Source: Nemertoderma westbladi
Taxonomy: Eukaryota > Animalia > Xenacoelomorpha
Length of the DNA: 64,000 nucleotides
NCBI GenBank assembly: GCA_032718475.1
Contig: JAUCBJ010006610.1
Coordinates: 62,001 to 126,000 of the forward strand
Reading direction: 5' to 3'
Under the pieces are notes generated by a model. That model did no database searches, was not told the DNA's origin, and saw only the letters and a program-made list of their open reading frames with translations. Below are positions 1-50,403 of this stretch, piece by piece. The stretch's first letter is position 1; every line of letters starts with the position of its first letter. The position numbers and the translations under genes are program-made.

Positions 1-3000
1 CATCATGCTCCTGATGAGTGATCATGTCAGCTAAATACTTAGTAGGTAGCCGATAAGTGGGAAGGTCTTTGATGGTATTGACCCTTTCAACCTTTTCGTG
101 GATGGCGTCGTGGGTTTCTTTAGTCTTGGAATAGTGATGGTGGAAAAGCTGTGTCAAATAAGTTATCGCTTTACAAAGTCTTTTCCAAGAACTGTAGTGG
201 GCCATCGCTCTCTTCACTATACGTGAGAGTCCTTTTGAGACATCGGGTATACCAGTCTTCCAATCTCAACTCTGAATATATGCCGATGTTCCGTTTGGGG
301 TTGGCTGCGTAGTATCATTGTTGTCACCGACAGTGTGTAGAACCGATAGATCGAGCATTGGTTTAAACAGTTTGGATTTACTTGTCTGAGTCTTTGGTTT
401 AACAGTTTCCACTCCCTTGGCTTGTCTGATCTCGGCGGTGGTAAGATGGGGGAGGGGGGGGGGGGGGGCATTCCTCCCCTTCTTTACTCAGGAAGTCGGG
501 GCCACCTAGCCAATTTGGCGTCTCAGTTAATTCCTTGGGTATCGCTCTTCTGGAGACGATATCGGTGGGATTAATAGTCCCAGGGCAATATCTCCATTGG
601 TCCACCTTTGTCTGGCTGAGTATAATATCCACGCAGTTAGTTATAAAGACGCTGAACTGGCAGACTTCGTTAGTCAAATATTCTAGAACGAGTAATGCAT
701 CTGTCCAATAAACCGTTTTCTCCAACAGGTATACTATCTGTTCGGTGATATTCCTACCAATGGCGGTAGCATACAATGCTGCCTTTAATTCCGCTCTAAG
801 GACACGCAGCTTGTTGTTTATTAGAGCTTTCGAGGTGGCTAAGGAAACCTTAATTCTGTCCAGTGTATCGACTCTCAAATAAGCTACTATACCTATTCCA
901 ATATCACTGGCATCCGCAAAGACGTGGAGTTGATAGGAGTAGGTGGGGAGAACAGGACCGAAGTATGAGTGAGAAATCTTAAAGACTTCAATAAATGGTA
1001 AAGAGTTTTCCCACTTCATCCATTTCTTCAATAGTTTGCCCTTTAATTTGTCATCCCAAGAGTGGTTCTCGAGCCACATCTGCTGGACTAGACTCCGAGC
1101 AACCAGGATTACTGGGCTAATGAATCCAAATGGATAGAAACATGTACTCAGAATACTCAAGCAGTTGTTTTAATTGGAAGAACAAAATATCGCCCTCTGT
1201 ATCCCACTTTAGTCCGAGAGTTTTGGTTTCTGGGAGGTCGTCTTTAATGAGGTCGAGATCTTTACCACCTCATTCTTTCTCTGGGATCGCCTCCAGAAAC
1301 CCAAGAGAGTTGCTGGTGAATTTCGTTAACCGGAATCTACCGTGTTGAAGACACTCTACCTTTCCCTTGGCAACCTCTATAGCTTCTTTCACCGTAGGTA
1401 GTGACTTAAGGTTGTCGTTCATGTAGATGGCACATTTGATGTTATCGATGACTGCTTTGGGGAAGGCGTCTCGATTCTCATCTGTAGTAGTACGCACTAC
1501 TCAGCCGGCATTGGATGGACTAGAGATAATTCCGAAGGCCTGGATAGTCATCCAGTACTCTACTGGTTCTTCGTCGAAGTCACCATTAGGCCAACATAAG
1601 AAACGTAAGCTATCTCGGTCCCATTGCAGCGCTTTCACCTGAAGAAACATGCCTTCTATATCGGAGGCAAAGGCGATAGAATACTGCCGGAGTTGCAGTA
1701 GTATTCTCTACAATGATTGAAGTGGGTTGGGTCCTGGCAATAAATCAGAGTTGAGGGATTGTCCCTTATATAGCGCAGAGCCGTCGAACACCACCCGGAC
1801 TTCGTTGGGCTTTCCGGGTTTAGGAACGTAATGGTGTGTTAGATAATACATCCTCTCCATCATAGGTGTATCAGTTGGAACTCGCTCTGCGTATCCCTTG
1901 TCGATGAACTTTTTCAACTGGGTCTTTTACATCTCTTTGGCTTGGTCATTACTTGACAAACGTCGATGTAGTTGTTCGATTCTCTTGATGGCTAATGGTC
2001 AGTTGTTTACGAAGCTGGGTTCTCTCTTCCAGAATGGTAAACCGATCTCGTAACGACCCTCCTCCTTTAAATAACGAGTAGTCGTCGCTTGGATCTGCTT
2101 AGCCCTCTCCTCTGATAGAGCTTGATCATACGAGTTGGGTTCTACAGCTTCTTGCGTGAAGAATCACACTGCGAGTTCATCTCTCAGTTTAGCTTTGTAT
2201 CGCTCCACTACCTCATTGAGCTCATCATCCTTGTAAGCCAACAGTTCGTTATTAAGCTGTATTAAGTTACAGAGTTCGACTTGATCGAACCAAGTTTGAG
2301 TTTCAGTGAGGGGTTCTATAACATTCTCCTCGTCGTAGAGTGTTTGTATGTCGTCATTATGCGAGTAGCATGAAGTTTCCTCGGCTGTCAGCGTTTCATC
2401 CATCATGGCCTCCACTCTGTTTCATACTTGAGGGACTTGTTTGTCTTCTCCTCTTTCTCGGAGTGTACACCCAGAGGGTCCCGTGAAGTACCAACCCACT
2501 CTGGTTCTTCCCAAATATGTTTGTAAGGGTTGCGGTCATGCAGGTCGTTTTTCTTTAGTCTCGAGCACTTCGTGCATGTTTTTGCTGATGAGCATTTGAA
2601 CTCCCAGATAATCGGGTTTGAATCTGGGAACTCGGTGTCTCTGGGCGAAGAAGTCTTCGTCCTTGTCATAAGGTTCTACTTGACTAGCGGCAAAGTTCTT
2701 AATAGCTACCATCTTAAGGGACCTTATGCCGTTCTTACCAGATACATCCTAGGGAGTCGATAATGATCCCATATAATAGTCCATAGACACGGTTGATTTC
2801 CATACCTGCATGATTCCTGAGAGATTTAACGTAGTTCTTAATTTCTCCTGTCCTGCAAATATGTCTTCGGCCAAGTTCTTGTCTATAAAGGTGCCTGTAC
2901 TACCTGAATCAAGGAGGGCGTTAATGATTAAACTCTTACCTTGTCCATGTATCCTGAGCTGCGCCACTGGGAATTCTCTTATGCCTCTCGATGGTTGTGA

Positions 3001-6000
3001 GACCTTCCATGAGAATTGTTTATCCAGAAGGGATAGTTGGGCTTCCTCTCCGTCGGTAGTCGCCTCATGGGTAAGGGCATGGTATACTGTCGTAGTTGTA
3101 ACATAACCTCTTATCCCAAGTTACATTACGTCTATCTCTGAGGTCCTTCTTTAGGAATTCCTCACACTTACTAAGGTGATGGGGTCCTTCACATGACACA
3201 CAAGTTGGGTTAATATTAGTTACCTTAGGTTCTACATTGTTCTGCACTCGGGTTTTTTCTTCAGGTTTCTTACCTAGAATCCTTTTAGGTGACGTTGGAT
3301 GAGTCTTATGCTGTTCTCACTTTCCATCCTTGTGCCAATCTTTGGATTTTCCTACATCTTTTCTCTTACCTGTGTAGTAGACGTCGGTACTATTTGGTCC
3401 ACTGTCCTCATTGTAGGAGATTTGACTCTCATACTCGGTGTAGCATACAGGCATGACTTTTCTCCTAGCTACTGGTTTCTCAATTGTCTTGGTTTTGGGA
3501 GTTTTCTCTCTAGACTGTTTTATCAGGTGTAATCTTACCTCTCCAGTCAGGAAAGACATAGGTCCGCCATTGTAGGATCTCTCTTATGTTGATCCTCCAA
3601 GTAAAGCTCCTTTTTGTCCCAACGAGTATCCCCTCTGCCCTTAGGTCATGCCACTACAGCTTCTACCACCATAGAACTTTGGTACTGATGAGATTTACCT
3701 AACCATTCCAACTGTCTACATATCTCCTGAACCTCATCGGAAAACTCTATAATTCCATTGCTAGGGAATTTTCTGGGCGACACTAATTTTGCATACAAGT
3801 ATCTAGCTATGTTAGTCCTATTTCCATACCTGATATTTAGTTACCTGATCCCATACTTGTCTTAGACCGTCAGGATGTCCAATGAACTTTAATGCCATCA
3901 ATTTGGGAGGACCTTCCAAACACTCGATGAGGAATCTTAACTTCTCTCCATTTGATAGGACAGAGTTTTATATATTGTATTTATAATATTCATTAAAAGG
4001 CAACCACTTCATCTCATCTCCGTTAAACTTGACGACTTCGCCAACCTTCATGGCTTGTGGGGCCTCGGGTCTCGCCATCTGACGCATAAAGTTCTCCTGA
4101 GCCATCGTATTATTCAATATCGAATTATCCCAATATGTATTTCTTGGATTATTATCAGGCACATATGAGATATTATTATAAGTTGGTCTATTAATATTAT
4201 CAATATTATTGGCATGATCTGGTATAGGAGTTTCCACTTCACTAGCCGTATAGATGCGCTATGCTCTACACCTTTCGCATATGATTCACACCTAAGCGGT
4301 TGAAATACAGTTACCAGGGGTGGTGGTATACCCTTTTTTATGTTTACTAATTTATCGCTTTCTAGTTGCCGTACTTCTTGCAACTCTATTTTATTCTCTC
4401 GTACTGTTCCCTTTTATGATCCAACAGTACCCTCCAAATCTCTGAGCTGTGCAGCTGATTTGGCCTTAGGATGGGCCATCTGCCGTAGCAGTTCCCCCAT
4501 CTCCCTACGTCTCTCCTCCATCCACTCGACCGCTGGAGTGGGAGTTGCCAACAGAGTGGCAGTGGGATGGCACATCGGGTAATGGGAGACAGCCCTAGTC
4601 CAAACGACTTGCGTTCTCTTTGGGGGTTTTCAGCCGACAATACAGGGATTTGGCTACTGGTTAAGGGAGTATTTTTACTTTCTAAAGGGAATCTAGGATC
4701 ATATCCGAGCAGTAGAGGAGTCTCCTTTAATGGAGTAGACTTAACAACAGGCCTACTTATTTCAGGCTCATCTAAAATAGTAGGAAGCCTATTCGATTCG
4801 TCTACCTGCGTTATTGATTGGCCAGATATTAAGTCTGTATTCGCCAATGCTCTCCTCACAGGGGGAGGCAAGTCAGGTAATTTGCATTCTATGGGAGCTC
4901 ATCTACGCCCATTGGAATGGGATTTGTAACTCCGACATTCTGATCCAGTTGTAGTCCCTTCATCGGAGGATGTAGAAAATCTGTGTCTCTTGGAAGTTAA
5001 ACGACTTCTAATTTGCGCTTGAACCGTTTCTCTTTGCTTTTGTATCAGTTCTTGTCTCGTTTGGATAGTGTCAAACTCTAGTTGAGCCAATGCTTCAGAT
5101 GCAGCCTTAGCAGCTGCTCTTTTTGTTTCTTCTTCTACTTCCTTTCTCTTTGCTGCTTCAGCATGTACTTTAGCTGCATCAGCTTCTCGCTGAGCTTCCT
5201 CTTCTATCAGTCTCCTTTTCACTGCTCTAGATCTTTCTTGTTCGATAAAAGTTGCTTTGTCTGCTTTATCCTGTTCAGCAGCCTGCATCTCCGCTCCTAT
5301 TGCGTCCAGTATGTTACCGGCTGCTTCACTGCTAGGATGCAGTCCAGCTAGACGTCTTCTTAGCTCCCGATCTCCTATTAATTGCTGGTAGTCTGACAAA
5401 TAAATGTCAATAGCATTTTTCTTAGGCTGCCCTTCAAGCTCTACTTCCCCTTATCCATTTGAAAGAACTGTGTCAGTGGATTCCCCATACACGAGTTGAT
5501 CAGCCAACTGGTTTTTCCACATGGCAATTCCCTGAACCTTATCATTGATTCGTTGAAACCATACTCGCACCGCTACCTGCAGGGAGGTATCTTGCCTTCT
5601 CTTATAGGCTTCTTGGAATGCTCACAAAATTAATCTAATCCTTAAGATCCGCTCCTGCACTTGGAACAAGAGTAGTCCTTACACTTGAGGTTCCAACTGT
5701 CCTCGGAATAGTTGTGTTTCCAGTCGTCCCATGGAGTTAAAGAATCCCTGCACGTAACCGGATGCTGACCTCTTCCACACCGCAGGGTCTCGGGTCTCCC
5801 GATTTACTCATAGCTGATATAAGTCCTCCCATGGAACTTCGGAGAAGTTTAAGGGAATTCCGGGTCTGGGAAAGTTCCAATGCTACTCAACTAAGGATTC
5901 CAATTCTTCCCGCAAATATCCGGCGTAACTCTCCTTAGTCAGTCTTCTAATTCCTTACCCAATCCGCTAAATGCTCTTCCAAAGCTGGAAGAAATTGGGT

Positions 6001-6372
6001 GAGCATACCTCCAGGGAAAAAGAAGAGGGGGTTGGCATCAGCTACCTCTGCTATTCTTTGATCAGCCGCTGTAGGTGTCAGTTCTTCTGTACTAGAGTGG
6101 TTATCGCTGGATCGTTCAGGGGTTGCTGGTGGTTCATTCTGACGTGCTTGATCTGCTGCCGCAGCTTGAACTCGTTTCACTTGGGCCCTAGTGCCTATAA
6201 TAGACCTATGGTGCTTCACTAACCTAGGTTCCGACACAACTACTGTAGGGATAGCCTTTCTTATAGTAGGTGGAGACTTAGACTTCGGTCGGGTCCTTTC
6301 TACACTTTGATCGGGGTCACAGATTGTCTGTTCTAATATGCTATCCAACAGGGTGTATTTTGAATCAGACAT
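1..6372 (-). pseudogene. gag-pol polyprotein pseudogene of BEL-1 (many stops and frameshifts)
   Basis: ORF pieces 5947-6372, 4899-5399, 4386-4871, 3968-4237, 3317-3559, 2749-2967, 2164-2415, 1708-1917, 1270-1497 and 399-1160 align in order with the 46863-38095 polyprotein. Confidence 0.93.
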
Positions 6373-7488
6373 TATGAGATGTTTCCTTACTGAATGCCTA
6401 TTACTATATAACAGTCAAGTTGGTTTAACAAATCAGTATCAACTGTCAGTCTTACAGTGATAACGTATTGCTACCCAGACAATAATCAGACAACAATGTA
6501 TAAAATACTGGTATACAATATAGTATATATAACAGTATTACAGAAAACTGATATCACTCCTGAGTACTGGTATATGCGTATAGCCTAAATTATTAAGTAT
6601 ATAATAAACATACTGTTAGTACCGGTATGTTCAAGAATTAAGCAATAAGTGATCTTGATCTGTCAGTTATAGGAATTAGTTTCCGTTTACTTAGCGCTGA
6701 TGTCAGCATATTTGGTTGAGACTTAGTTGGATCTAACAGGCCTACGGGTTTTAAATCTGATGAAATAAAGTTTAAATTGAGGTAGATATATATATATATA
6801 TGTATATATATATATGTACCGGGTTTAATTAATATTTATCCAGAAGTTCAGAGGGTTATGAACCACAGTCAATTATTGTTATAAAGCACAATGAATTATT
6901 GTTCTTACTCGGTCACAGTAAGCATGGTAAACACTCCTTAGGGAGAGTTTATAGACACTAATTAATAATAAGTTCTACTGACTAAGTTACTTATCACTAC
7001 AAATTACTCAAATACGTACGGCGGGTTGAGATTACACAATCTCTAAATAAACAATAAACAAAAATACAATTTTAAGGGTAAATTTAACAAGAATTTTACT
7101 GTCCAGAACTTGAATTTCTGGTTCTTACAGGGGTAATACGGAATTTTGAAACCAATATAGTAGCATTCAATAGTTCGGGTTGTCTAGATAAGGAGATGCC
7201 ACCATCTGACAGTGTATAGTCTACACTATAAACAAACGTACCCAGAGTGTCCTATACCTAGAAGTTAATTTTCGTAGTCTACGCTAACAGACCTATTAAC
7301 CACTTTACAACTCAAATATACTGCATATACACAAAATTAAATTTCAGGAAAGTGTTGTACTCTAAACCCTAGTTAGATATGAAGTACGCAGTTAAACAAA
7401 CTTGAACAGCTAAAAGAACCACAGCATCTGCCGGGTGACCGGAGTACAATATCACCAGTCTGTCCTAAGCCAAGCAGTCCTGAAATAG

Positions 7489-9984: not shown

Positions 9985-10677
9985 CTGAAATAGTACTGGG
10001 GTTAATTTAACTATTACGGTATGTACAACTTAGCAGAATTATTGCAGAAATATGTATACTTAGGGACATGAAGGTTGCAAATTACTTGCATAAACTCTGA
10101 ATAATAAGTATTACGCTACCTTTACAGATTACCAAAAACAAAACACAAACCGAAATGCTGACAGACCACCATCAAATCTAAAATAAACCACAGTAGATGA
10201 AGTTTCCAAAATCATTAGTTAGTACACTTTCCAAACTAAATGATACAACTTATTTTTAATGGGGGGTTTACCTTACAGCTATGGATGCCCCCACTACCTA
10301 ACTCGTGCTCTATCGGATCAATAACCTACAATACTGTAATCTACTTCAAATCCAACAATAATCAGGCAACAACTCAGCCTATGGATTACCTTTACAACTT
10401 GAGCAGGATTAGACACCTTCTGCTCAATATTACACTTAAAGACAAACAAAGTTGACAGAAACAAGTAAAATCTCAATAAAAAACACCATTAACTACTAAG
10501 ACCTACTGATATACAATTATCACAATAGAATTAATACTGATGTACAATAGCGGACCGGTACCGCTAGGCCTACGGGTTACCGGTCGACCGGTAAAGTACA
10601 GGTTTTATTGCCTACGGAACAATAATAATAAAAAATATGTTACTGTTTAGAGGAATTATAGGTTACAAGTAAATCAT

Positions 10678-13012
10678 TGTGTGCGCTTTTAGAACTTTAA
10701 CAGTTTGACCTGTTAATTTAAGTGTCTTATGATGTCTGACAGCCCGTACAAATATGACCACAGCCGAAGCCAGTCTAGAGCGGCATATGACCCACTGGAG
10801 GTGGGAGAATGGATTCGATGGCAGAGAGAACCGTATGCTACTTTGTATTATTCAATTGATCTCTACTATATAATCTCCAAAAACTATGTTTATTTTCAGT
10901 GAAATACCAACATTTCCTTTCAGGTGCTACGCTTTAAATACCACGCAGAGATATGACTTATACTAATTACAACGGATGGACATGAGACTGCGCAGTGTTT
11001 ACATTCTTAAGGATTGTATAATTATTCGCTCGCATTCACACAACTGACAATATTACTGAAATACGCTAATTTGCCGACTATCACCAATTTTACTCGCATA
11101 TAAGGATAAGTCATCATGACTCATGTACATTGGGGACTATGAAACAGCATCAACTCATACAAACCACTGTTATTTGAACTTTGCAATTGTGAATAGTAAA
11201 CCCCTCTGCTTACCTCAATGATCATGAAAACCAAGAGATCTACCGGTTATTCATAAGTATTCTCCAACCATTAACATTAATCAATATGTAACAAATCGCA
11301 GTATTATAACAATATAAACAATATAAATTACGCGGTGTGCGGCATTTAATCATCACAAGTCCCTAAAAGGTGCCACCCTGCTCCATAGCGCGGGAAATTC
11401 AAATGATTGAAAGACATGTTATTTGTACTGGAAAGGGTGGCAGATCAGATCTGCCACCTATATATTGGCGGTAAATTCAAATCTGTTTTAACATTGAATA
11501 CATGAATAGAGTAAGACCAATCTTCCAATGTAATTCATTGAATCAGAATAAATTATTTATTATCGGTTTAACTCACTCATCCGTTAATGTTGTTGATTTA
11601 TCTATTCTGGGACTTCGAGCAGTACGTGAACAACTAAACCAGCACGCTAACTACCGGTAGTCTGGGGCTTCGAGCACCACGTGAACAACTAAACTGGCTG
11701 GTTACCTAGTCTGGGACTTCGAGCAGCACGTGAACAACTAAACCAGCACGTTAACTAGTCTGGGACTTCGAGCAGCACGTGTACAACTAAGCTGCCTGGT
11801 TAACAAGTCTGGGACTTCGAGCAGCACGTAAACAACTAAAGCTGACTGGTTAACTAGTCTGGGACAGATATAGCAGTATAAGCAGAAGCATTATACACCT
11901 ATTGTTATTACAGTAGGCCTACCTGCGATATATTTTACTATCAGTTCCCTGCTATATTGTTATAATTATATTGTTCTGATGTAATTATAACTGATACAAG
12001 CAAATAACAAATGTTCTTTACATTTTACTGATAGAAGTTAAGCCAAATACCTCGATCCACCCCCTTCTCAATTTGCGAGTTTGCTCGAAGTCCCAGACTA
12101 GTTAACCAGTCAGCTTAGTTGTTCACGTGCTACTGGAAGTCCCAGACTATAGTTAACCAGTCAGCTTAGTTGCTCACGTGCTGCTCGAAGCCCCAAACTA
12201 GTTAACGTGCTGGTTTAGTTTTAGTTGTTCACGTGCTGCTCGAAGTCCCAGACTAGGTATCCAGCCAGTTTATTTGTTCACGTGCTGCTCTATGCCCCAG
12301 ACTAGTTAACGTCAGGTTTAGTTGTTCACGTGCTGCTCGATGTCCCAGACTACCAGAATAGATAAAACAACAACAATAACGGATGAGTGAGTTAAACCGA
12401 TAAGAAATAATTTATTCTGATTCAATGAATTACATTTAGTCTTACTCTATTCATGTATTCAATGTTAAAACAGATTTGAATTAACCGCCAAAATATAGGT
12501 AGCAGATCTGATCTGCCACCCTTTCCAGTACAAAATTACATGTCTTTCAATCATTTGAATTTCCCGCGCTATGGAGCAGGGTGGCACCTTTTAGGGACTT
12601 GTTTTAATCATCAGTCAGATGTCAGAAAGTCAGGAATGGACGAGAGATAATTTACTGTGCTGTGTAATTCCCTGACACTCTAGCCTCATAATCTTTTGGG
12701 CAAAGTCAGAAAATGAATAAACACTCACACTGAAGGGCTGCAAGAATATTCTTGCCTCAAGTAGTCCACAAAGGATGAATCAAATCGAACGCCATAGAAT
12801 GTATGGAACGCAATCAGGGACCAGTTACCATGCCATCAACTCGTAACCAATGGATCCGGTAATTCAGGCTATGGTGACTAACAAAGAAGAATGTAAACAA
12901 AGGGAATATTATCCAATGAGTGGTGATTTCGTAATCTGTGCATCAGAGTTTCTGTGGGAATGTACGGGAAAGTGTTGTACTTAGAATAAACGCTGGAGGG
13001 AGTAAGTTTACA
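10678..13012 (-). repeat. 5' LTR of BEL-1 (about 1.08 kb after removing the 11355-12602 insertion)
   Basis: TGT...ACA ends. Shares blocks with the BEL-2 LTRs (GCCGAAGCCAG, CAGAGATATGACTT, termini TGTGTGCGCTTTT vs TGTACGCGCTTTT and AAGTTTACA vs AAGCTTTTACA). Confidence 0.8.
11355..12602. mobile_element. Foldback/MITE-like element with long TIRs inserted in the BEL-1 LTR
   Basis: TIRs of about 250 bp (ACAAGTCCCTAAAAGGTGCCACCC... / ...GGGTGGCACCTTTTAGGGACTTGT), each followed inward by ~5 copies of a ~49-bp repeat. 10-bp target duplication TTTAATCATC at 11345-11354 and 12603-12612. Confidence 0.9.
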
Positions 13013-13634
13013 TTAGTTCATAAAATACAAAGTTCTTGAGAGTTTTTCAAGGGTTTAGGGTAACCAGCGCATTGTGTAAGATGGGGACATTTTGGCCGCA
13101 AAAGCTTTAACATATTGTAATTTTGGTGCTCTTTTAGTGTCTATTATAAAATAAACAATGAAGATTTTATTCTAATTTCGCTTTCGATTACTAATAATTA
13201 ATTAGACTAACCAAAAAAGCAAAATATGGTTTAATGGTTTTACCAATTAAATTAAATTATTGAATAAGGGTGATGTATTTTGAGTTCATGTTCCCAGTGT
13301 TTTCGATCTTGTGCGAGATTTCGCAGTGATTTGACAGGGTGGCGGGGGTTGGGTGGTTTGACGTGGGCAGCGCTGCAACAGTACATACGGTGACAGTTAT
13401 CGTCCATCTCATTTACAGTAACACAGGCCCTTCATCACCTTACTAGCGCAAGATACTGCGGTGAAGGTCCGCAATAGGAGTTCAAGAATCATCCTGTGCA
13501 ATTAATTATATTGCAATACGCCTATAAATCTTGTCTTACCTATTGAAAAAATAAACATATTGATTATTGATGTAGAAGGGTAGTCCTACAGTACTATGTA
13601 TAGGGTAATTTAACTTTCTGCTGTTTATTTTTAG

Positions 13635-16650: not shown

Positions 16651-16685
16651 CCCATGAGGATGTAAGATGAGATGAGATATCATGT

Positions 16686-22400: not shown

Positions 22401-22509
22401 GTAGGGAGTGTTACCATCACCCATAACATTTCACTAATTGCACTAATTGCACTAATTGTGCCGCATCTCCCTACCTGAGGGAGTTTTTAAAATACTTCGG
22501 TTGTACAAT

Positions 22510-30688: not shown

Positions 30689-31209
30689 AAAAATATCGAG
30701 ACATGAAAAATATCGAGAGTAAAAATAACGCGAGTAAAAATATCGAGTGTTGAAAAATATCGATAATATCGAGAGTTCAAAAAATATCGAGAGTAAAAAT
30801 ATCGAGAGTAAAAATATCGAGAGTAAAAATATCGAGAGTAAAAATATCGAGAGTAAAAATATCGAGAGTAAAAATATCGAGAGTAAAAATATCGAGTGTT
30901 GAAAAATATCGAGAGTAAAAATATCGAGTGTTGAAAAATATCGAGAGTAAAAATATCGAGAGTAAAAATATCGAGTGTTGAAAATTATCGAGAGTAAAAA
31001 TATTGAGAGTAAAAATATCGAGAGTAAAAATATCGAGTGTTGAAAAATATCGAGAGTAAAAATATCGAGTGTTGAAAAATATCGAGAGTAAAAATATTGA
31101 GTGTTGAAAAATATCGAGAGTAAAAATATCGAGTGTTGAAAAATATCGAGAGTAAAAATATCGAGAGTAAAAATATCGAGAGTAAAAATATCGAGAGTAA
31201 AAATATCGA
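30689..31209. repeat. Tandem array of 15-bp AAAAATATCGAGAGT and 17-bp AAAAATATCGAGTGTTG units, possibly subterminal repeats of a truncated DNA transposon
   Basis: About 30 copies seen directly; the array abuts the 5'-truncation point of the LINE at 31208. Confidence 0.9.
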
Positions 31210-31481: not shown

Positions 31482-32683
31482 TGTACGCGCTTTTGAAGAC
31501 CTTTAGCAGTTTAACCTGCCAAAATTTATATGTCTTTTGGTTTATAAATAGACTTTAGTAAATGACAAGTATTTAATACCAATAAACACAACATTAGCCG
31601 AAGCCAGCCTAGTGCGCGTCCATTCACCCGCTGGATATACCCGGGAGACTGGATTCGGATGGGGCTTAGATTTTATTATTGCAGTGTAAGCTTACTGTAT
31701 TATTCGATTGATCGTTAATAAATAATTTCTGACGAGTATTATTCACTTTCGGGAAATATTAACAGTTCCTTTAGGACGTGGCGCTCTATCTAGGTAAACA
31801 GAGATATGACTTATACTAAACACAACTGTAAGACTGTAAGGCTTATGACTCACGTATGAGGCGCATTCTTTAGGAAATGCTTAGTTATCAGCCACAATCA
31901 TGCACACTACCGGTACCACACAATACTGCACACTAATCTGCCGACCGTCAATGAATTTTATCATACATAAAGAGAACAGCAATTGACTCATGTAGTGCCT
32001 ATCAAATAGCATTAAATTCACTACAAACCACGATAATATAAGTCGCAATCGCTATATGTAACCTGTCTCTCTAACCTGTAGTGTATCAAGAAAATTGGGA
32101 AATTTGGGTTATTTATCGATGTTCTCCAAATAATAATATTCAACCAACTGATACAAATAATGACAACAGTAAAAAGCATTAAGACGGTAGGTTAAGATTA
32201 TAACAATATAAGATTGTACCGCTGCGCTACTGCGCTGATAAGACTGATAACAGTTATACGCTCTATAATCTAAGCCTACTAATGTTTCTTTTAAAGTCTG
32301 AAACAAATTGACTCCAGAGCCGGTGTTCTTGGCCTAGATAGAAACAACAAAACTATAACACAGAAAACTATAAGACTGAACACTCCTAGCACGATCTGTA
32401 GAATATCTCCACATCGACAGTAAAAATCGCTCTGATTGGCTGTTAAGCTGAAACAAAGAACCATGTGTCCAACGGCCATTTCCATGCCAGCAACCAGCTG
32501 TTAGATGTCGTAATCTGAATCATCAAGGCTACACTGTGCTAGAGGATTTGACGCATTGCGGGTTTTGTATCTTGCCATGTCCTCCAAAGCACACATAGAG
32601 AAAAACAACTTTTATGTCCATTAAAACACCCACACGGTATTTTGCGGGCAAGGGGACTGATTATATCCGCAAAAGCTTTTACA
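31482..32683 (-). repeat. 3' LTR of BEL-2 (1202 bp)
   Basis: TGT...ACA direct repeat of 49215-50403 with about 6 substitutions and one 13-bp indel by eye; AATAAA on - strand at 31672-31677. Confidence 0.97.
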
Positions 32684-35807: not shown

Positions 35808-38800
35808 ATCTGCTATCTGAGTTTATTAATATCAAAATGAGTTTATGTTTAGGCTAGCGGGCGTCGCTGCCTACCTCTCGTTGCCCCCGGACAGTGGGAT
35901 TCTCAGCGCCGATGTACCGTCGTCGCGGTGTTTACGCCAACATGTAGCAACAGCACGACAACGATAACCGGCACAAGTCACTCCACTGTCCGTCCCAAAG
36001 GCTTGGATCCACTCTAGGTTCTTTCTATAGGAGAGTTGGGTTACTTTCACAATTGCGACTAGCTACTGTAAACATACTTTAGCAGTAACATTCACCTATA
36101 AATGCATAAATTCCACACAACTGTCACCAATTGTACACATACAGGCCATTTGTCCGTTAGTCAGTGCCTTCCAGAATGTCACGTTATTACTGTGTATCCT
36201 TGGATACTAACAGTGTGCTATGTATTCTCTATGCTATGCAATGGGACAAGCTTTCTATTGTTCTTTTAACTTGCTTCTAATTCTAGCGTGGGTGTTGCTA
36301 TGGTGACATTATGGAAAGCTAGCGGTAGAATTAGGGTAATTCTCATGCATACAGATCTGGAATGCTATTTAATAGTAATTCTTTAATTGTCAATATCCTC
36401 TCTATGCATGATTTTATTAATTTTTATCGGCTATTGACTATATGTTGGAGATTCTCGCACTCTAATATACTCAAGAGGATGAATCTCCGCTCCCATGATC
36501 TATTAATTAATGGAATTTTGGGAATGTTATAAATTGCACAAAATGACAATTTATGAAATTCATTTAAAATATGAATTTAAATTTATTCCCGTGAATTTTA
36601 TTATTTGATGTTAAAATTGACACAATTTTTATTCCAGAGCATGTCTGGGGACTTTAACCACTGATTCTAGAATTTGTCTTTCAAGTATATCGGTGGGTGC
36701 CGCGATATCTTAATCGACTAGAATTACAGATGGTCAAAAGGTTTAACAGATTTATTTGCGTTTTACGCTACTGTTATAGGGACATCACGCTACTATATGT
36801 ATTATTATATATGGTATGAGAGCAATATCGCACGAAGCAATGTCAGTGTGAAGAGGCAAGTCGTTTTCAAGGTCTACCCAGAGCTTGGTTTAGCCGAGAC
36901 ACGAGGATCTGAACTTTGCATTCCTAATACTCTGCCTACCAATAATACTTGAATATAGTAGTGGCTTTATTGTACTTTAATAAGTACGGACATTTCATCT
37001 TACTGTAGTCACGTATTTATAATATGATACGGACAGTAAGGAAAGAGAAAAAATTATTTCTCGCCGTCACACTAAATATATATTATATATATGTAATTAC
37101 GTAATAAACACTAATATATTGCACTAATCTACCAAATAATCTAAAATAACCTTCTACTAAATAAAATTGAATAAAAACGATTATAATAAAGTACATAATA
37201 ATGTTCACATATAAAATATAATAAAATAGATAAAATAATATAGTCATGCACCCACTCCAGACGTATCACGTTGGGGAGTCCCTAGATGTTTGAGGAATTA
37301 GGGAGGTGGTCGTGGGAAGAGTGTCTTGCCTTCCATAGTTTCCGGAGAGTTCTCTGTCTCTTTCCAGTAAACATAAACGACCAACTGGGCGGTTGAGTTG
37401 TTGCGTCTCAAAGATTATGCCTGGCTTCTTGAAGTTACGCCGCATGACGACGAGTTCTACCGAGCGTACTAAACCATCATCCGAGATGTGAGTCTCGATG
37501 ATACGACCTGTCTGCCACCGTTTACGTGGGAGGTCTGAATCTACAATAAGCACCATATCTCCGGCGCTGACGTTTTCTTGCTGCGCAAACCACTTAGTTC
37601 GAAGTTGTAGCGTGGGCAGATAATGTTTCTCGAAATGGTCAGCGAAACGACGGGATAGCAACTGCATAAGTTGCCAAGTTCGACGGCAGTATTCGTCTCC
37701 GTCGGTAATCTCCGATCGTGGGAGCATGGCTTAAGGTTTATTCAGTAGGAAGTGCGCGGGTGTTAGCGCTTCCAGGGAATCGGGACTCGATGAGACTGGC
37801 ATAAGCGGTCTCTCGTTGAGATAGGCAGCTATTTCCTCCATTAACGTCCGCAAAAGTTCGTCGGTGAGATACGCGCGGCATGGCACTATAAAGTGAAATG
37901 CGGTTTTGACACTTCTAATTAATCTCTCCCAACTTCCTCCCCACCAAGGGGCGTCGGCGGCGTTGAAGGTCCAGCTAGACGCTGTTATCCTTAGCTGATC
38001 GTCCACCTGTCTTTGGTTCCAGTCCTTCACGTAAGCCTGGATTTCGTTGTTGGCACCAATGAAGTTCGTTCCCTTATCCGATCTCATGGTATTACTAGTC
38101 CCGAAGCGAGCGATCTGTCGGCGTAAACTTAAGACGAAGCTGTTGGTAGATAGATCGTTCACCATTATCGAGATGGATGGCTCTACAAGTCATGCATACG
38201 AAGATGACACACCATCTCTTGACTATAGTCCTAGCACGATATACTTCAATAGGGCCAAATAAATCTACACCAGTATTAGTAAAAGGTGGTTCATAGAAGC
38301 TTACTCGTTCCCTAGGTAATTCTGCCTCTCGCTGTGTTAAAGGCCTACTGAATGCTTTCCTACAGGGTATGCAGTTCCTAAGAACTTGGTTCAGAGCTCT
38401 ACGGGGTTTATAAAAATAATAGCGAGTTCGGATTTCGCTAAGAACTCGTTCTCTACCAGCATGATAAAGTTTGCTGTGAACATCTACAATCATCTTGATT
38501 TGTACTTCAAGATTTCTAATGAGTATGGGGAATTTAGTGTCAAAGGATAATGGCGCATTGGTGAGCCTTCCTCCAACACGTATTAACCCATCTATCATTG
38601 TGCTAGAGAAGCGATCCCTTAAGCGCATCTGCGGATTTCTCAACAACAGGAAATACTTATCGGAATCTTCATAGCATTGCAGGAGTCTCAGTATCTGCTT
38701 ATTGGTTTCTTCGTGCTCCTGGTAACTGATTTTCTCCTTTAGAAACCGGTCAGATGTCTTATATTTGGGTAAATTTTTAATAACATGAACTTGCGCAGAT

Positions 38801-39993
38801 GTCAATGGAGCGGTATCACTAATTGTCTTCGTCCTGGAGTAGTGATGATGAAAACATCGCCTTAAATATATGACGGCTTTACAGAGCCGATTCCAGGAAC
38901 TGTAGTGAAGCATTGCTCTCTGCAGCAGGGGTGAGATTCCTTGCGAGACGTCTGGTATTCCAGATTTCCAATCTCTGTCTCTAATTTCCATGACAGACTT
39001 ATTTGTGGCGAGGGATTGTGGATCCGAAGCATCGTTTCCGGAAGTATGTAATACAGATAGATCGATCGTCGGTTTAAATAACTTCGATTTACTCGCCCGG
39101 GTTTTAGGTTTGACTTTCTCCGCTCCCTTGGCTTGTCTAATCTCCGCCGTAGTAAGGTGAGGAGGCCATTCATCCTCTTCCTTACTCAGGAAGTCGGGTC
39201 CACCCAACCAGTCTGGAGTATCTATCAGTTCCTGTGGGGTTGCTCCCCTGGAGGCGATATCAGCTGGATTAATCGTACCAGGGCAATGTCTCCATTGATC
39301 TATCTTTGTGCGACTAAGAATAATAGCTACCCTGTTAGTAACAAAAACGCTGAACTGACAGACTTCATTGGTTATATACTCCAACACGAGTAAAGCGTCG
39401 GTCCAATAAACAGTTTTCTCCAGCGGATAGTCGATTTGTTCTGTTACGTTCCGGCCGATGGCTGTAGCGTATAAAGCCGCTTTTAACTCCGCTCGAGGAA
39501 CCTTTAACTTGTTGTTAATCAATGCCTTAGAGGTAACCAAGGCGACTTTGATTCCATCCGGAGTTTCGACTCGCAGATATGCTACTATACCTATTCCCAT
39601 GTCGCTGGCGTCTCCAAACACATGGAGTTGATAGGAATATGTAGGAAGAACATGACCAAAATATGCACGGGAAATTACAAAGCTCTCGATGGCAGGTAGA
39701 GAATCTTCCCATTTCATCCACTTCTTTAACAGTTCTCCCTTAAGTGGATCGTCCCAGGAGTGGTTTTCAAGCCACATTTGTTGTACTAAACTCCGAGCAA
39801 TCAATATAACTGGGCTAATAAATCCCAATGGGTCGAAATAAGTGCTCAGGATACTTAAACAAATCTGTTTGGTCCGAACTGGATTATCTCGCTGTTTTAG
39901 CTGAAAAAACAGGATATCTCTTTCAGTGTCCCACTTCAAGCCAAGCGTCTTGGTTTCTGGAAGATATTCCTTTATTAAGTCTAGGTCGTTCGT

Positions 39994-41562
39994 TCTTCTA
40001 TTCGTTCTCTCATTATTTAAATACTGTTATCATTAAGTTACAGTCAGCCAGTTAGAGCCCTATTAACTACTTATTTGCGTTGTTGAGAGCTTTAACCATT
40101 AAAACTCTTTTTTAAATATTTTAAGATTTTAATTTAATTCGCCTTAACTTAAATAAATAAATATTTTTAATAATAATAAAAATACTACGGTACTTTAAAA
40201 TGGAATTTGTTCTGTTATATTAGGTGTATTATGTATTTTTGTGTACTATGTATTTTTTTTTTTTTTTTATTATATGATGAATATGATTGATACTAGGTGA
40301 ATACTGAATAATACCACGGTATTTTGATTAGAGAGATTAATACTAGGGTATTTTGATACGGTATTTTGATTAGAGGTGAACACTAGACAATACTACGGTA
40401 TTTTGATTTTGATTAGAGAGATTAATACTAGGCTATTTTGATACGGTATTTTGATTAGATGTGAACACTAGACAATACTACGGTATTTTGATTAGTGGTA
40501 AATATAATTAATGCTACAGTATTTTGAATAGAGGTGAACACTAGACAATACTACGGTATTTTGATTAGTGGTGAATATAATTAATGCTACAGTTTTTTGA
40601 ATAGAGGTGAACACTAGACAATACTACGGTATTTTGATTAGTGGTGAATATAATTAATGCTACAGTATTTTGAATAGAGGTGAACACTAGACAATACTAC
40701 GGTATTTTGATTAGTGGTGAATATAATTAATGCTACAGTATTTTGAATAGAGGTGAACACTAGACAATACTACGGTATTTTGATTAGTGGTGAATATAAT
40801 TAATGCTACAGTATTTTGAATAGAGGTGAACACTAGACAATACTACGGTATTTTGATTAGTGGTGAATATAATTAATGCTACAGTATTTTGAATAGAGGT
40901 GAACACTAGACAATACTACGGTATTTTGATTAGTGGTGAATATAATTAATGCTACAGTATTTTGAATAGAGGTGAACACTAGACAATACTACGGTATTTT
41001 GATTAGTGGTGAATATAATTAATGCTACAGTATTTTGAATAGATGTGAACATTAAATAATACTACGTCGTGGTTGTCTAACATCATATAATTATGTATTT
41101 TGATTAGACAGAGGTGAATATGATTACCACAGTATTTTGCTTAGAGATGAATATAAGTAATACTACAGTATTTTGTTTAGAGGTGAACATGATTAATACT
41201 GTACTACAGTATATTGAATAGTGATCAATACTACGGCGATTAATACCAAATACCAGTATATTTCAACCGTATGTTATTATTTCGTCCAATTAATTTGCAT
41301 ATTACTGTATTATGACACTGTATATATTTTCATGTTTTATTTTATCCATATGTAATTTTAAACGATTTTAAATTTAAGCTGCATAAATCATTTTAAGAGG
41401 GGACCTGCATGGAAACGAGTTCTATGAACTCATGCAGTTATCCCCGTCAGAACATTTTATTAGATAACCTTTAACATATAAATGTATATTATGTATATGT
41501 TCTTATGTATATGTATTTCTGTGTATTTCATGCGTTTCTGACAATAAACAACTTCAACTTCA
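39994..41562 (+). mobile_element. Non-coding retroposed insertion with a LINE-like 3' end interrupting the BEL-2 RT
   Basis: Removing it restores ...PVEDRS-TNDLDL.... It ends in AATAAAC(AACTTC)n after a stem-loop-like 3' UTR (CTGCATG...CATGCAG). No ORF; ends are approximate because of microhomology. Confidence 0.8.
40370..41065. repeat. 73-bp minisatellite (two related ~36-bp halves), about 8-9 copies
   Basis: Unit GAGGTGAACACTAGACAATACTACGGTATTTTGATTAGTGGTGAATATAATTAATGCTACAGTATTTTGAATA; starts at 40531 and 40604. Confidence 0.95.
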
Positions 41563-44500
41563 ACTTCGGTCTTCTACCGGTATCGCTTCCAGAAACTCAC
41601 GGGAGTTGCTGGTGAATTTCGTCAGTCGAAATCCACCTCTTTTCAAACACTCTACCGTTCCTTTCGCGACATCAATGGCTTCTTCTACTGATGGAAGGGA
41701 CTTTAAATTGTCGTCCATGTATATATCGCGCTTGATGTTATCTATCACCTCTTTGGAGAAGGCGTCTCGGTTGTCATTCGCAGTGGTCCGCACCACGGAG
41801 CAGGCGTTGGAAGGGCTTGATATGATCCCAAAAGCCTGGATGGTCATCCAGTACTCTACCGGTTTCTGGTTGAGATCTCCTTCAGGCCACCACAGAAATC
41901 TTAGGCTGTCTCTATCTCTATCCAGCGCCTTGACTTGTAAGAACATTCCTTCTATATCGGAGGCGAACGCGATGGAATATTGTCTTAATCTTAAAAGTAT
42001 TCCCAACAAAGATTGGAGTAAGTTGGGTCCTGGTAACAACTCGGAATTGAGGGATTGGCCCATATATAGAGCGGAGCCATCGAATACAACTCGTACTTCA
42101 TGGGGTTTACCGGGTTTGGGAACGTAATGATGTGTTAAGTAATACGTTCTCTCAGTTACTGGTGTTCCTTCCGGTACTCGCTCCGCGTATCCTTTTGTAA
42201 TAAATTTCTTCAACTTAGTTTGGTACATTTCTTTAGCTGAAGCATTAGCCGTAAGGCATCGATGTAATTGAGTGATTCTTTTCTCTGCCAAGGGTCTGTT
42301 ATTTATAAATCTAGGTTCCTGTTTTCGAAATGGTAGGCCGATTTCATATCTACCTTGATCTTTTAAAAAACGTGTAGTTGTTTCCTGGATTTGCTTGGCT
42401 CTTTCTTCTTCTATCGATAGGGCCTTATCGTATGAATTGGGCTCTACCAATTCTTGAGTAAAGAATCGTATGGCGAGTTCGTCCCGAGTTCTAGCGTTGT
42501 AGCGCTCTATCTCATCATTTAGTTCGTCATTGTAATCAATGGGTCCCGATGGGCGAATCAGTTGACATAGGTTCACCTGGTTTTTCCAAGTTTTGTTTTC
42601 TGTAATTAGGTCGATTGTGTCTTCTTCATCGAAGAGTTGGTAGATGTCGTCATTATCTGAGGAGTATGGTGTTCCCTCAGTTAGTTCGTCCACCTCACTG
42701 CTCTCCACTTCCCAATCATTTACTTGGTATATTCTTTCTTGTGGTAGTCTCTCTTTGAGAGTTCTGCGGGAAGGGCCAGTAAAGTACCAACCTACTCTAG
42801 TTCTTACCGCATAGGTTTGTAGTGGCTGCGGTTGAGCAGGCCATTTCTCCAATGTCTCGAGCGCCTCATGCGCGTTTTGGCCGATGAGTATTTGTACTCC
42901 AGGATAATCTGTCTGGAATCGAGGTATCTTAAGCTGTTGGATGCTCTCGTCCTCGTCCCAGTTATAAGGTTCTACTTGGGTAGTAGCGAAGTTCTTTATA
43001 GCCACCATTTTTACTGACCTTATACTTTGTGCTCCTGATTTATCCTGGGGGGTGGACAACGCACCTACATAGTAATCTGCCATTATGGTAGATTTCCAAA
43101 CCTGCATAATTCCGGACATATTCAACTTAGTTTGGAATTTGGGTTGTCCAGCAAAGATATCTTCGGCTAGTTCTTGATCGATGAATGTTCCTGTGCTGCC
43201 GGAGTCAAGGAGGGCGTTCACTATGTAACTTTTGTTAGGACCGTGAACTCTTACCTGCACTACAGGAAATTCTCTGATTCCTATGTTGGAAGTTGGAGCT
43301 TTCCAAGATGGTTGTCTGTCAAAGGTAGTTGGGGGGAACTCATTGTCGGTGTCCTTTTCATAAGTAAGTGCTCGATACACCGCGGTATTTATTAGGTAAC
43401 AGGATTCGTTGGCGTCGGAGAATTCGTCAGTATAGAATCCTTCCATCTCAGACTCTTGATCAGTGTCATTTACATCACTGAATTGGACATGTAGTTCGGG
43501 CTCACTTACCTGACTCGGGTTGTTTCGTTCGAACTCACTGTGTAACAAGATGTGATGTTTCGCGCCGCACTTTGCACACTTTACGTCTGAGTAACAGGTT
43601 CGCCGTTGGTGTCCTGATCTGAGGCAATTATAGCATAACTGCTTATCCCACATGACTTCACGTCTGTCTACAAGGGATTTCTTTAGGAATTCAGCACACG
43701 CACTCAAACGGTGGGGCCTGTCGCACAGCGCACAGTTTGGTTTGATGTTACTCACTTTACCCTGGGTAACTTGATGCACTCTCGTTCTTTCTTCGGGCTT
43801 TCTTCGGTGCATTCTGTTAGGAGACTGAGGAGGAGTCTTGGCAACCTGTTCTCTCCTATCGTTGGTTCGAGCCTTGTATTTACTTACGTCTTTGGAGGTT
43901 TTGTTAACGTAGTAAAATTTGTCAGTGTCTTTTCCGCTGTCCTCTTCTTGAGAAGCTTGGCTTTCGCCATCGTCAGTGTAACACACTGGTGTTACTCTTC
44001 TCCTAGAAACGGGTTTCTCACTTACCTTATTTTCCGATGTTTTCTCTCTGGACTGCTTTATGAGTTGTAGTTTTACTTCACCATCTAAGAAGGACATGAG
44101 ATCAGCCATGGTAGGGCCTCGTTGTTGCTGCTCATTCATATACAACACTTTCTTATCCCAGCGTGTACATACTCCACCCATGACCATGGAACTCTGATAT
44201 TCATGAGACTTACCTAACCAGTCCAATTGTCTACAGATCTCTTGAATCTCATCGGAAAACTCTATAATCCCGCTACTAAGGAAGTTTCGGGGGGCTACTA
44301 ATTTTGCATACAAATACTTAATTATGTTATCCTTGTTACCATACCTGATGTTTAATGTGTCCCAAACTTGTCTTAATCCATCTGGATGTCCAATAAACTT
44401 TAACGCCATTAACTTGGGAGGTCCTTCCAAGCACTTGATGAGGAATCTAAGTTTCTCTCCGTTAGATAGTACAGAGTTCTGTATGCTATCTTTGTAATAT

Positions 44501-47500
44501 TCATTGAAAGGTAACCATTTCATCTCATCTCTATTGAATTTGACGATCTCTCCCACTTTGACCGCTTGGCGGGCTTCTGTTCTAGCCATCTGACGCGTGA
44601 AGCTTTCTTGGGCCATCGTGTTATTTAATATCGAATTATCGGTATATGAATTTCTCGGATTATTATCAGGTCTATATGGAATATCATTAACAACAGGTTT
44701 ATAATCACCCTTAATAGGGTTTGCTATAGGAGTTTCTACTTCACTAGCAGTATAGATGCGTGTAGGCTCCACACCTTGCGCATGTAATACTTCAGACCTA
44801 ACAGGTTGACACAATGTTACTGGGGGTATTGGTATACCCCTTTGTATATTGACTAATTTGTCGCGTTCTAGCGCGATGCTTTGCTGCACTTCTTGCAATT
44901 CTGCCCTACTTTCCCTTACTGTTCCCTTAAGTTGGTGGACAGTCTCCTGCATCTGTCCGAGCAGGAGATTCATCCCTCGCCGTCCCTCCTCTACCCACTC
45001 GACCGCCGAAGCGGGAGTCGCCAACATTGTAGCGGGCCGATGCGGGACGACGGGAGACAAATCTTTGATTTCTCTCTCAGCTTCCAGGACCTGGATATTC
45101 TCATGGACTGTTCTACCGGGTACAGGCAGTGTAGTACTGTGTAAAGGGAATTTAGAGTTAAGCTCTGGAAGTACAGGGGTCTCTAGCACAGGAGTGGCTT
45201 TGGGAACGACAGGCCTAATTATTTCAGGCTCATCAACTATTGTAGGGAGTCTTTTGACCTGAATAATTTGGTCTGTGGGTTCTGTACTACCTAAGTCTGT
45301 GCTAGCTAGTTGTCTTCTAACCGCTGGGGGCAAATCAGGCAATTTGTGACGGTGAGATGTTTTTCTACGCCTGCTTAGACAAGATCTATTTCCTCCGCCT
45401 TCAGGATCGGTGGTCTCGCCTTCCTCCAATGATGTGTATCCCTGGCGTTTGGGAGTAGATCGTCTCATCATCTGCATTTGACTAGCAGTTAACTGTTTAT
45501 TTATGTTGTCTTGCGTCTCTTGCAGATTTTCCAACTCCAGTTGGGTAGTCTCCTCAGACGCTCTCCATTCTGCTTCTGCCACTGCCTTTGCTGCCTTTCT
45601 TTCTGCTTCTGCTTCTGCCGCCGCTGCCTTTGCTGCCTTTCTTTCTGCTTCTACTTCTGCCATTGCCGCTGTTACTGCTGCTGCCTTTCGGTCCTCTATC
45701 CGTTTTTTCTTTACTTATTCTTCTTGGACTCTAGCGAGGCGGAGTTTTTCATCAAATTTAGCTTGGTTTGCAGCTAACATTTCCGCATCGATTGAGTCCA
45801 ACACAAGCTTGGCTCCTTCACTATTGGGGCGAAGTCCAGCCAGTCGTCTCCTCAACTCTTCATCACCTAAGAAGCGTTGATAGTCTGACAGATAGATGTC
45901 GATGGCGTCTCGCGTTCGCGGTCTCTCTGCTGTCCCTTCGCTTTCCACTTGAGAAAGGGTGGCATCGGTTGGTTCCTCATAGGTTGGTCTCTCAGCCAGC
46001 TGGGATTTCCACTGGGCCGTTTCTTGTACTTTGAGACCTACCCGCTGGAACCAAGTCTTGACAGCAACCTGCGGCGACGTGTCCTGTCTTCTTTTGGAAG
46101 TTTCCTCAAAGGCTGATAGGATTAGTCTAATGCGTAGGGTTCTTTCGCGTACTTGATATAGCAGCTCTTCCTGCTCTTGAGGTCCTTGGGGTTGTCGAAA
46201 CAGTTGTTCTTCTAATCGCTCTAAGGAGCCGAAGAATCCCTGCACATATCCTGCTGCTGACCTCTTCCAAACAGCTGGATCCATCGTATCTTTAGTCACT
46301 CCCATCCTGTGTATGTCTTCCCAAGTAGCTTCGGACAAATCTAACGGGAGTCCGGGTCCGGGAAAGTTCCATTGTGACTCGACAATAGACATCAATTCTT
46401 CCCTGGCGTATCCCGCATAACTATCTTGGGTCGCTCGCTTACTTCTCGCCCAATCGACTTGGTGTTCCTCCACCGCAATCAATATAGTAGTTAGTACTGC
46501 GGCAGGAAGGGTGAGAAGGGGATCCGAGTAGGCCGTAGCCGCCATCTTCACTCCGCGTTCGGGGGTCAGCTCTACGGTATCCAAACTACTGGAGCTATCG
46601 GGTTGCTGGGAACGAGTTTCTTGACTAGGATGTTGCTGCTGTTGGACAGCTGCTTCTTGGTTCCGTTTGACCTGGGCCCGAGTGCCGATGATAGACCTAC
46701 GGTGTTGGATTAGCCTAGGGTCTGATACTACTACTAGAGGGATGACCTTTCTTTCAGTAGGAGGTGAGCTGAACCCCTTTCTTAATTGCTCCACACTCCT
46801 ATCTGTGTCACAGATGGTTGTATCGATTAGACTGTCTGACAGGTTTTGCTGGGTGTCAGACATGTTTATCTATACAGTTGAATGCTTACTGCTATAGTTA
46901 CAGTTAAAGCAAGTCTAGTAATTCAGTATGACCGTTGGCCTAGTACCGGTAATTTATTACAGTATATTAGAATACCGGTATACACTTATAATATATATAA
47001 GTATTGTAAACTAGGTTTGTCTCAGAATACCGGTATATAATTTTAACACAAATATATATAAATATACAATAGGCCTATCGTGAATACCGGTATACAGCCT
47101 ACACTTATAGTATATAAGTATAATTCTGGACTAGAATTAATTACAGAATACCGGTATAATTTCAGCCTAAATTTATAGAAATAAAGATAATAGGCCTATC
47201 GTAAATACCGGTATATCAATTATTTAAATAATTGAATTTCTGAATTTTAAAGGTTACTTAGTTACTTTAACTTACTTTATTACCGTTATTTAAGCAGTAG
47301 TCCAACTGATATTGAGACCTAGTTGTTGTATGGCAGGCCTACTATTTATAAATCGTTTGAGTTGATTTATAATATATATATACCCGTTTAAAATGGGTTT
47401 TGTCAATATTTGAAATAAATGTTATTATTTCTGGGGGAGTCACTACACAGAAGCAGTGCGCTCTCAGTGAAGTGCTACTTATTGGACACTAAAACAGATA

Positions 47501-49152: not shown

Positions 49153-49201
49153 TTTACCGGTCGACCGGTACTTTCAACTTTATTGCTTACTGCAATAAAG
49201 A

Positions 49202-49214
49202 GTATAACTGTTAT
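49202..49214 (-). promoter_or_regulatory. Candidate self-priming primer-binding site of BEL-2 (ATAACAGTTATAC)
   Basis: Abuts the 5' LTR, lacks TGG, and is an exact 13-nt complement of the LTR-internal sense sequence at 32247-32259. Confidence 0.65.
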
Positions 49215-50403
49215 TGTACGCGCTTTTGAAGACCTTTAGCAGTTTAACCCGCCAAAATTTATATGTCTTTTGGTTTATAAATAGACTTTAGTAAATGACA
49301 AGTATTTAATACCAATAAACACAACATTAGCCGAAGCCAGCCTAGTGCGCATCCATTCACCCGCTGGATATACCCGGGAGACTGGATTCGGATGGGGCTT
49401 AGATTTTATTATTGCAGTGTAAGCTTACTGTATTATTCGATTGATCGTTAATAAATAATTTCTGACGAGTATTATTCACTTTCGGGAAATATTAACAGTT
49501 CCTTTAGGACGTGGCGCTCTATCTAGGTAAACAGAGATATGACTTATACTAAACACAACTGTAAGACTGTAAGGCTTATGACTCACGTATGAGGCGCATT
49601 CTTTAGGAAATGCTTAGTTATCAGCCACAATCATGCACACTACCGGTACCACACAATACTGCACACTAATCTGCCGACCGTCAATGAATTTTATCATACA
49701 TAAAGAGAACAGCAATTGACTCATGTAGTGCCTATCAAATAGCATTAAATTCACTACAAACCACGATAATATAAGTCGCAATCGCTATATGTAACCTGTC
49801 TCTATAACCTGTAGTGTATCAAGAAAATTGGGAAATTTGGGTTATTTATCGATGTTCTCCAAATAATAATATTCAACCAACTGATACAAATAATGACAAC
49901 AGTAAAAAGCATTAAGACGGTAGGTTAAGATTATAACAATATAAGATTGTACCGCTGCGCTACTGCGCTGATATTATACGCTCTATAATCTAAGCCTACT
50001 AATGTTTCTTCTAAAGTCTGAAACAAATTGACTCCAGAGCCGGTGTTCTTGGCCTAGATAGAAACAACAAAACTATAACACAGAAAACTATAAGACTGAA
50101 CACTCCTAGCACGATCTGTAGAATATCTCCACATCGACAGTAAAAATCGCTCTGATTGGCTGTTAAGCTGAAACAAAGAACCATGTGTCCAACGGCCGTT
50201 TCCATGCCAGCAACCAGCTGTTAGATGTCGTAATCTGAATCATCAAGGCTACACTGTGCTAGAGGATTTGACGCATTGCGGGTTTTGTATCTTGCCATGT
50301 CCTCCAAAGCACACATAGAGAAAAACAACTTTTATGTCCGTTAAAACACCCACACGGTATTTTGCGGGCAAGGGGACTGATTATATCCGCAAAAGCTTTT
50401 ACA
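49215..50403 (-). repeat. 5' LTR of BEL-2 (1189 bp)
   Basis: Direct repeat of 31482-32683 lacking AGACTGATAACAG after 49973. Confidence 0.97.

Follow-up and report, generated by a model that had tools for sequence, protein, structure and literature searches.

The window, a stretch of 64,000 nucleotides from Nemertoderma westbladi, carries two minus-strand BEL/Pao elements, BEL-1 and BEL-2 (Table 1; Pfam PF03564, PF05380, PF17921, and PF18701). They are sister BEL/Pao LTR retrotransposons, 81% identical to each other across 476 columns of RT and RNase H. The composition Gag-PR-RT-RH-IN with Pao-type domains is that of BEL/Pao (Belpaoviridae), and all named matches are BEL/Pao-type polyproteins by Pfam. 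TG...CA ends and a target duplication are present in BEL-2; only the 5′ LTR of BEL-1 lies within the window. The 3′ end of the BEL-1 LTR (10678) is placed by homology to BEL-2, because the 3′ LTR of BEL-1 falls outside the window. Six substitutions and one 13-nt block distinguish the two LTRs of BEL-2. Ahead of the BEL-2 3′ LTR, there is an extra ORF of 596 aa (32762–34552, minus strand) with Cys/His clusters, for which Pfam and Atlas searches gave no match. Tandem arrays are seen at 22500–28300, 30690–31310, 40320–41170, and 48870–49180 (units of 34/57/23 nt, 15/17 nt, 73 nt in BEL-2 pol, and 38 nt in the BEL-2 leader).

Table 1. Features of BEL-1 and BEL-2 in the window (positions on the forward strand of the window).
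Feature	Position	Strand	Remarks
BEL-1 gag-pol remnants	1..6414	-	PF05380; stops and frameshifts; continue past the window start
Hairpin and 16-nt palindrome	10578..10640	-	Conserved with BEL-2; downstream of the candidate primer-binding site
BEL-1 candidate primer-binding site	10651..10677	-	Core 10677-10668; distal partner 10658-10651
BEL-1 5′ LTR	10678..13112	-	~1.18 kb plus 1.25-kb insertion; TG...CA ends; by alignment to the BEL-2 LTR
Foldback-type insertion in the BEL-1 LTR	11355..12602	.	Long inverted repeats; 9-10 bp target duplication; downstream of the candidate primer
BEL-1 candidate self-primer core	12647..12656	-	Ends in AT, then C
BEL-1 duplex extension	12658..12672	-	3 bp (12660-12658) and 8-bp distal helix (12672-12665)
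BEL-2 3′ LTR	31482..32683	-	Element flanked by 5-bp target duplication
BEL-2 candidate self-primer, 3′ LTR	32247..32266	-	Core 32259-32247 (13/13); extended 19/20; ends in AT, then C
BEL-2 gag-pol	37266..46869	-	DUF1759, RT, Peptidase_A17, Integrase_H2C2, DUF5641; broken by stops and a tandem array
BEL-2 candidate primer-binding site	49195..49214	-	Core 49214-49202
BEL-2 5′ LTR	49215..50403	-	Without the 13-nt block; distal duplex part retained

BEL-1 and BEL-2 resemble Belpaoviridae in the domain set and its order, in TG...CA LTRs of 1.2 kb, and in the 5-bp target duplication. The ICTV profile of the family describes an 18-nt primer-binding site (PBS) for tRNA-Arg/Gly and tRNA priming, and calls the replication “poorly understood” (PMC8742986). 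The main texts of PMC554778, PMC3118150, and PMC8556966 do not contain PBS, tRNA, or priming. In contrast to the family with its tRNA PBS, BEL-1 and BEL-2 have no TGG site: TGG is absent from the first 120 nt past either LTR, as the initial annotation had stated for BEL-1. Due to the absence of an 18-nt PBS for a tRNA 3′ end (TGG-type, within 120 nt), they are atypical BEL/Pao elements, assigned by protein ancestry. Rfam and ARAGORN detected nothing relevant.

Downstream of the BEL-2 5′ LTR, the first bases are complementary to a segment inside the 3′ LTR, 424–436 nt from the LTR start. All 13 positions of the core are paired, and none of 2000 shuffled LTRs matched it. The extended duplex is paired at 19 of 20 positions (−25.5 kcal/mol; 0/200 shuffles as good). 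The full match is found in the 3′ LTR only, and the 13-nt block is missing from the 5′ LTR. The distal 13 bp of the duplex are present in both LTRs, which favours loss of the block from the 5′ copy. Contig depth is low at this block and equally low elsewhere in U3.

The initial annotation described a comparable match in BEL-1, and the description is correct except for the distance. On the minus strand, 10677–10668 pairs with 12656–12647 over 10 nt with one G:U, the pairing begins at the first base past the LTR, and a C stands before the LTR segment. The distance from the LTR start, given as about 355 nt, is 456–465 nt when measured from 13112. This helix is the longest one anchored at the first post-LTR base in the two LTR pieces outside the insertion; the runner-up has 8 nt. 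With its extension, the BEL-1 duplex comprises 21 bp in three helices (−16.1 kcal/mol), to be compared with −6.8 kcal/mol for the core alone.

Taken alone, the BEL-1 match is modest; the initial annotation had already cautioned that it is weak as an isolated AT-rich match. At least 10 nt with at most one G:U are reached by 47 of 2000 shuffled LTRs. If the register is allowed 0–5 nt of freedom, 37 of 500 shuffles equal the match, and an equally good LTR partner was found for 13 of 938 positions of the BEL-1 leader. Another site of the same LTR, near 12832, pairs more strongly (−19.0 kcal/mol, equalled by 14/200 shuffles). Unanchored gapped alignment of BEL-1 chooses yet another site, which is not significant (78–211/1000). 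These counts, the stronger rival duplex, four stops in the RT stretch, and the insertion in the LTR agree with an AT-rich complement that arose by chance in a decayed copy and would add nothing regardless of BEL-2 and the relatives. Against chance stand the register at the first base and the closeness of the site to that of BEL-2, since only 1 of 2000 shuffled LTRs matches equally well at offsets 400–500, a range picked after the fact. The second helix, first spotted by eye, also argues against chance; a second helix of 7 bp occurs at 10 of 1098 positions and in 95 of 5000 local shuffles.

Contigs from sequencing runs were aligned to the BEL-1 duplex. In runs X1 and X3, no variant is listed at 12647–12652, including the G:U position; single-contig variants occur at 12653, 12654, 12667, and 12668, all of which are paired positions. 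Both points weigh against self-priming. No contigs from runs X4 and X5 aligned to BEL-1. Contigs show loose ends at 12647 and at 12700–12705, where sister subfamilies part around the candidate primer, and one contig leaves exactly at the primer 3′ end.

The two matches had been proposed to reflect compensatory evolution, with pairing, register, and approximate position kept between BEL-1 and BEL-2. Both elements do pair at this place, and their offsets are within ~30 nt of each other, but their cores fall in separate stretches of the alignments. With MAFFT as well as pairwise, the BEL-1 core lies downstream of that of BEL-2 without overlap (columns ~172–181 and ~147–159, respectively, counted by hand), and positional homology of the matching segments is not supported. 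Only the distal helix of BEL-1 overlaps the BEL-2 helix (columns ~143–150 versus 140–159, also by hand count). As the cores occupy different columns, base-by-base compensation is not demonstrated. The lack of alignment between the cores is also in line with a chance match in BEL-1. BEL-1 aligns without gaps with the short 5′ LTR of BEL-2, that is, without the 13-nt block. In the alignment of post-LTR sequences, BEL-1 carries ~28–30 extra nt relative to BEL-2; the idea that they represent in full an inverted copy of LTR sequence was not significant by unanchored alignment. TTAT followed by C ends both cores, and by eye the two could also be aligned by placing matching indels on both sides. Two sequences of such divergence cannot settle the alignment of the cores.

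Relatives were represented by the best 80 of at least 559 loci confirmed in the 25 of 64 parts covered by the scan; 15 of the 80 have a terminal repeat with the 3′ copy ending inside the contig. L031, L032, and L068, without a clear CA end, and L037, identical to L035, were set aside, leaving 11 distant, boundary-defined BEL/Pao families. The tallies were counted by hand. In 9 of the 11 (L008, L013, L016, L025, L034, L035, L047, L052, and L055), a perfect complement of 11–15 nt to the post-LTR sequence appears only when the LTR is joined across a GT-AG pair, a predicted splice junction. L042 has a contiguous complement of 10 nt and no intron, while L005 has a TGG (tRNA-type) site. Complementarity between LTR and post-LTR sequence is thus found in 10 of the 11.

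For each of the nine spliced complements, 0–5 of 300 shuffled LTRs were as good, and 5 of 110 cross-pairs among relatives reach at least 10. L008 and L025 are not independent because their LTR sequences are related. Although splice-site quality played no part in the search, the donor ranks first among the GTs of its LTR in seven of the nine; the acceptor ranks 1–9 among 17–41. Among the loci set aside, L031 scored 12 contiguous, and L032 and L068 scored 11 spliced each. L041, a member of the L055 family, equals L055 minus the predicted 168-nt intron, exactly at donor and acceptor (L041:1-200 and 6910-7206 versus L055:6837-7379). This exact absence constitutes direct evidence for use of the junction; the contig may derive from DNA or RNA.

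When all 80 loci, many of which lack LTR sequence, were scanned blind under stricter conditions, 25 gave matches, 11 of them new families. A relaxed blind scan yielded 45 matches among the 80 loci and is not a rigorous test, since 13 were judged to be chance by their location away from the LTR end. The helix ends in AC or AT in all 32 matches kept and in 1 of the 13 discarded, a sorting done by hand and partly circular. LTRs without an intron but with a contiguous complement of 10–13 nt (L031, L042, L059, L064, and L065) fall on at least three separate tree branches. The search with the family pattern in metagenome, genome, and viral contigs revealed no relatives and thus did not add a close relative with DNA.

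All 10 boundary-defined relatives without a TGG site have a helix that ends in AC or AT with C or G as the next base, and it begins 0–4 nt past the LTR. The TGG site of L005 sits 5 nt past the LTR. BEL-1 and BEL-2 share this signature in helix start, AC/AT end, and the following C/G. The helix-end context is a further argument against a chance match in BEL-1, an explanation we regard as unlikely on the whole. The support for self-priming, as judged from sequence, is modest in BEL-1, strong in BEL-2, and strongest in the relatives. BEL-1 had been presented as independent support; it is such support to a modest degree and not a strong one, the main support being the extended duplex of BEL-2 and the relatives.

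Quick trees were built from 91 rows, after 12 of 103 were dropped for short coverage, and from 51 rows with a mixture model. In these trees, the long branch of BEL-1 and BEL-2 joins two others in a trichotomy, that of the TGG-type loci L005, L029, and P0014 and that of the self-complementary clade (SH-aLRT 87–91), and is not placed inside the latter. Thus, the relatives raise the prior for self-priming in BEL-1 and BEL-2 without proving shared ancestry. A separate branch beside the self-complementary clade is characterized by a short LTR with a TGG-type site 5 nt past its end (L005:56-80 and L029:17-45). Within BEL/Pao, BEL-1 and BEL-2 are tentatively labelled as probably near Suzu. They look intron-less. 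A spliced primer was searched for at their LTR ends and none matched; one acceptor candidate in BEL-2 needs base 49804, which is absent from all aligned contigs.

It is likely that BEL-1 and BEL-2 prime reverse transcription with an LTR-derived piece of their own RNA, with a probability of roughly 0.6, as suggested by the pairing, its register, and the arrangement in relatives, which are the part seen directly. For the BEL-1 lineage considered separately, self-priming is about equally probable.

Self-priming itself is known from Tf1. In Tf1 and Tf2, RT is described as cleaving a self-primer that lies in R and is paired to the PBS (PMC4600332, PMC5341516, and 10.1101/2022.12.06.519325). Tf1, Tf2, Tj1, and the Tf1/sushi group are similar to BEL-1 and BEL-2 in lacking a tRNA site and in having an LTR segment complementary to the sequence past the 5′ LTR. 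That complementarity, the criterion of the Tf1/sushi group, is strong in BEL-2 and modest in BEL-1. The Tf1/sushi elements are Ty3/gypsy chromoviruses, an ancestry which the Pao-type domains of BEL-1 and BEL-2 (PF05380, PF03564, and PF18701) contradict. The Tf1/sushi group has a three-duplex “pretzel” fold and RT-dependent cleavage, whereas the likeness of BEL-1 and BEL-2 to it rests on sequence complementarity. Unlike Tf1/sushi, most BEL/Pao relatives form the complement across a predicted intron, and a location of the primer at the RNA 5′ end is putative for BEL-1 and BEL-2. Self-priming has also been predicted from LTR-PBS complementarity in the plant copia elements TAR, Houba, and Osr-1 and in Tcn1; they belong to other superfamilies and hosts, and the available part of the source does not mention an intron (PMC6317226). 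The literature compared also includes accessible parts of PMC3286476, PMC6934838, and PMC3601003. Within the accessible literature, to which subscription journals, Repbase reports, and supplements do not belong, neither self-priming nor a splice-built primer was found described for BEL/Pao.

By analogy with Tf1/Tf2, the LTR segment would sit on the genomic RNA upstream of U5 and fold onto the post-LTR site. Cleavage behind the A-pyrimidine at the helix end would give a 3′ OH, probably by RT/RNase H as in Tf1, and the cut primer would be extended into U5. In Tf1, the primer is reportedly 11 nt long and remains on the minus strand. During plus-strand synthesis, LTR elements copy the PBS anew from the primer. 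If the post-LTR site is renewed in this way in each cycle, primer and site may turn over together without paired point mutations. “Compensatory evolution” would be the wrong term for such a templated co-change, which fits the combination of great sequence diversity and near-perfect pairing in the relatives. In the spliced families, the intron would persist through the 3′ LTR copy that is left unspliced; if the primer is cut downstream of the acceptor, the intron could be recovered from there. Splicing of the 3′ LTR copy may generate intron-less LTRs. BEL-1 and BEL-2 would be intron-less, long-LTR members, with a strong-stop DNA of ~710–765 nt.

The distance from the primer end to the LTR end is ~710–765 nt in BEL-1 and BEL-2 and 88–203 nt in relatives. 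A strong-stop product 3–8 times as long as that of relatives would speak for a pairing that is genuine but does not prime. Transcription would then begin at a TATA-like block, the segment would be present only in the 3′ copy of the RNA, and its pairing with the leader would contribute to circularisation, to packaging, or to strand transfer. Compatible with this, the two diverged LTRs share an identical 21-nt block with TATAAG (10944–10964 and 49531–49551), ~400 nt downstream of the candidate primers. The absence of a TGG site that could prime instead, and the start of the relatives' helices at the place where the TGG site of L005 lies, make a non-priming role improbable.

Behind a small hairpin, both leaders contain a perfect palindrome of 16 nt (10578–10593 and 49155–49170), a candidate dimerisation signal. 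Between BEL-1 and BEL-2, the hairpin and the palindrome are better conserved than the PBS letters. The fold z-score of the hairpin region is 0.12 for BEL-1 and −2.13 for BEL-2. The fungal GalEa elements, in the available part of their description, lack a PBS and have a Conserved Hairpin Site after the LTR, for which a role in priming is proposed; a complementary inverted repeat in U5 was not found by its authors, whereas BEL-1 and BEL-2 do have an LTR complement (PMC5445492). Priming in BEL-1 and BEL-2 by the hairpin and palindrome, or by some tRNA fragment, would leave the 19/20 complement of BEL-2 unexplained and is very improbable. A palindrome can equally fit dimerisation.

Self-priming from the LTR is the likeliest reading for BEL-1 and BEL-2. 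A wider scenario is offered tentatively, at slightly less than even odds. A large aquatic branch of BEL/Pao would have abandoned tRNA priming, with the host spliceosome building the primer from two LTR exons and the site being rewritten in each cycle. Intron-less LTRs would arise repeatedly by reverse transcription of a spliced copy, and BEL-1 and BEL-2 would represent a deep intron-less lineage with long LTRs, whose primer and site changed length and sequence jointly. If so, self-priming in BEL/Pao would carry the Tf1 mechanism into another superfamily, a splice-built primer would let host splicing control the initial step of reverse transcription, and it would be explained why PBS-based annotation misses such elements.

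Two further features lie between BEL-1 and BEL-2. At 14967–16653, a small element, in which 267-nt direct repeats that are 99% alike flank an integrase-core ORF, is nested in a larger inverted-repeat element. An ORF on the minus strand at 17182–18264 shows a weak match to sulfotransferase (PF00685).
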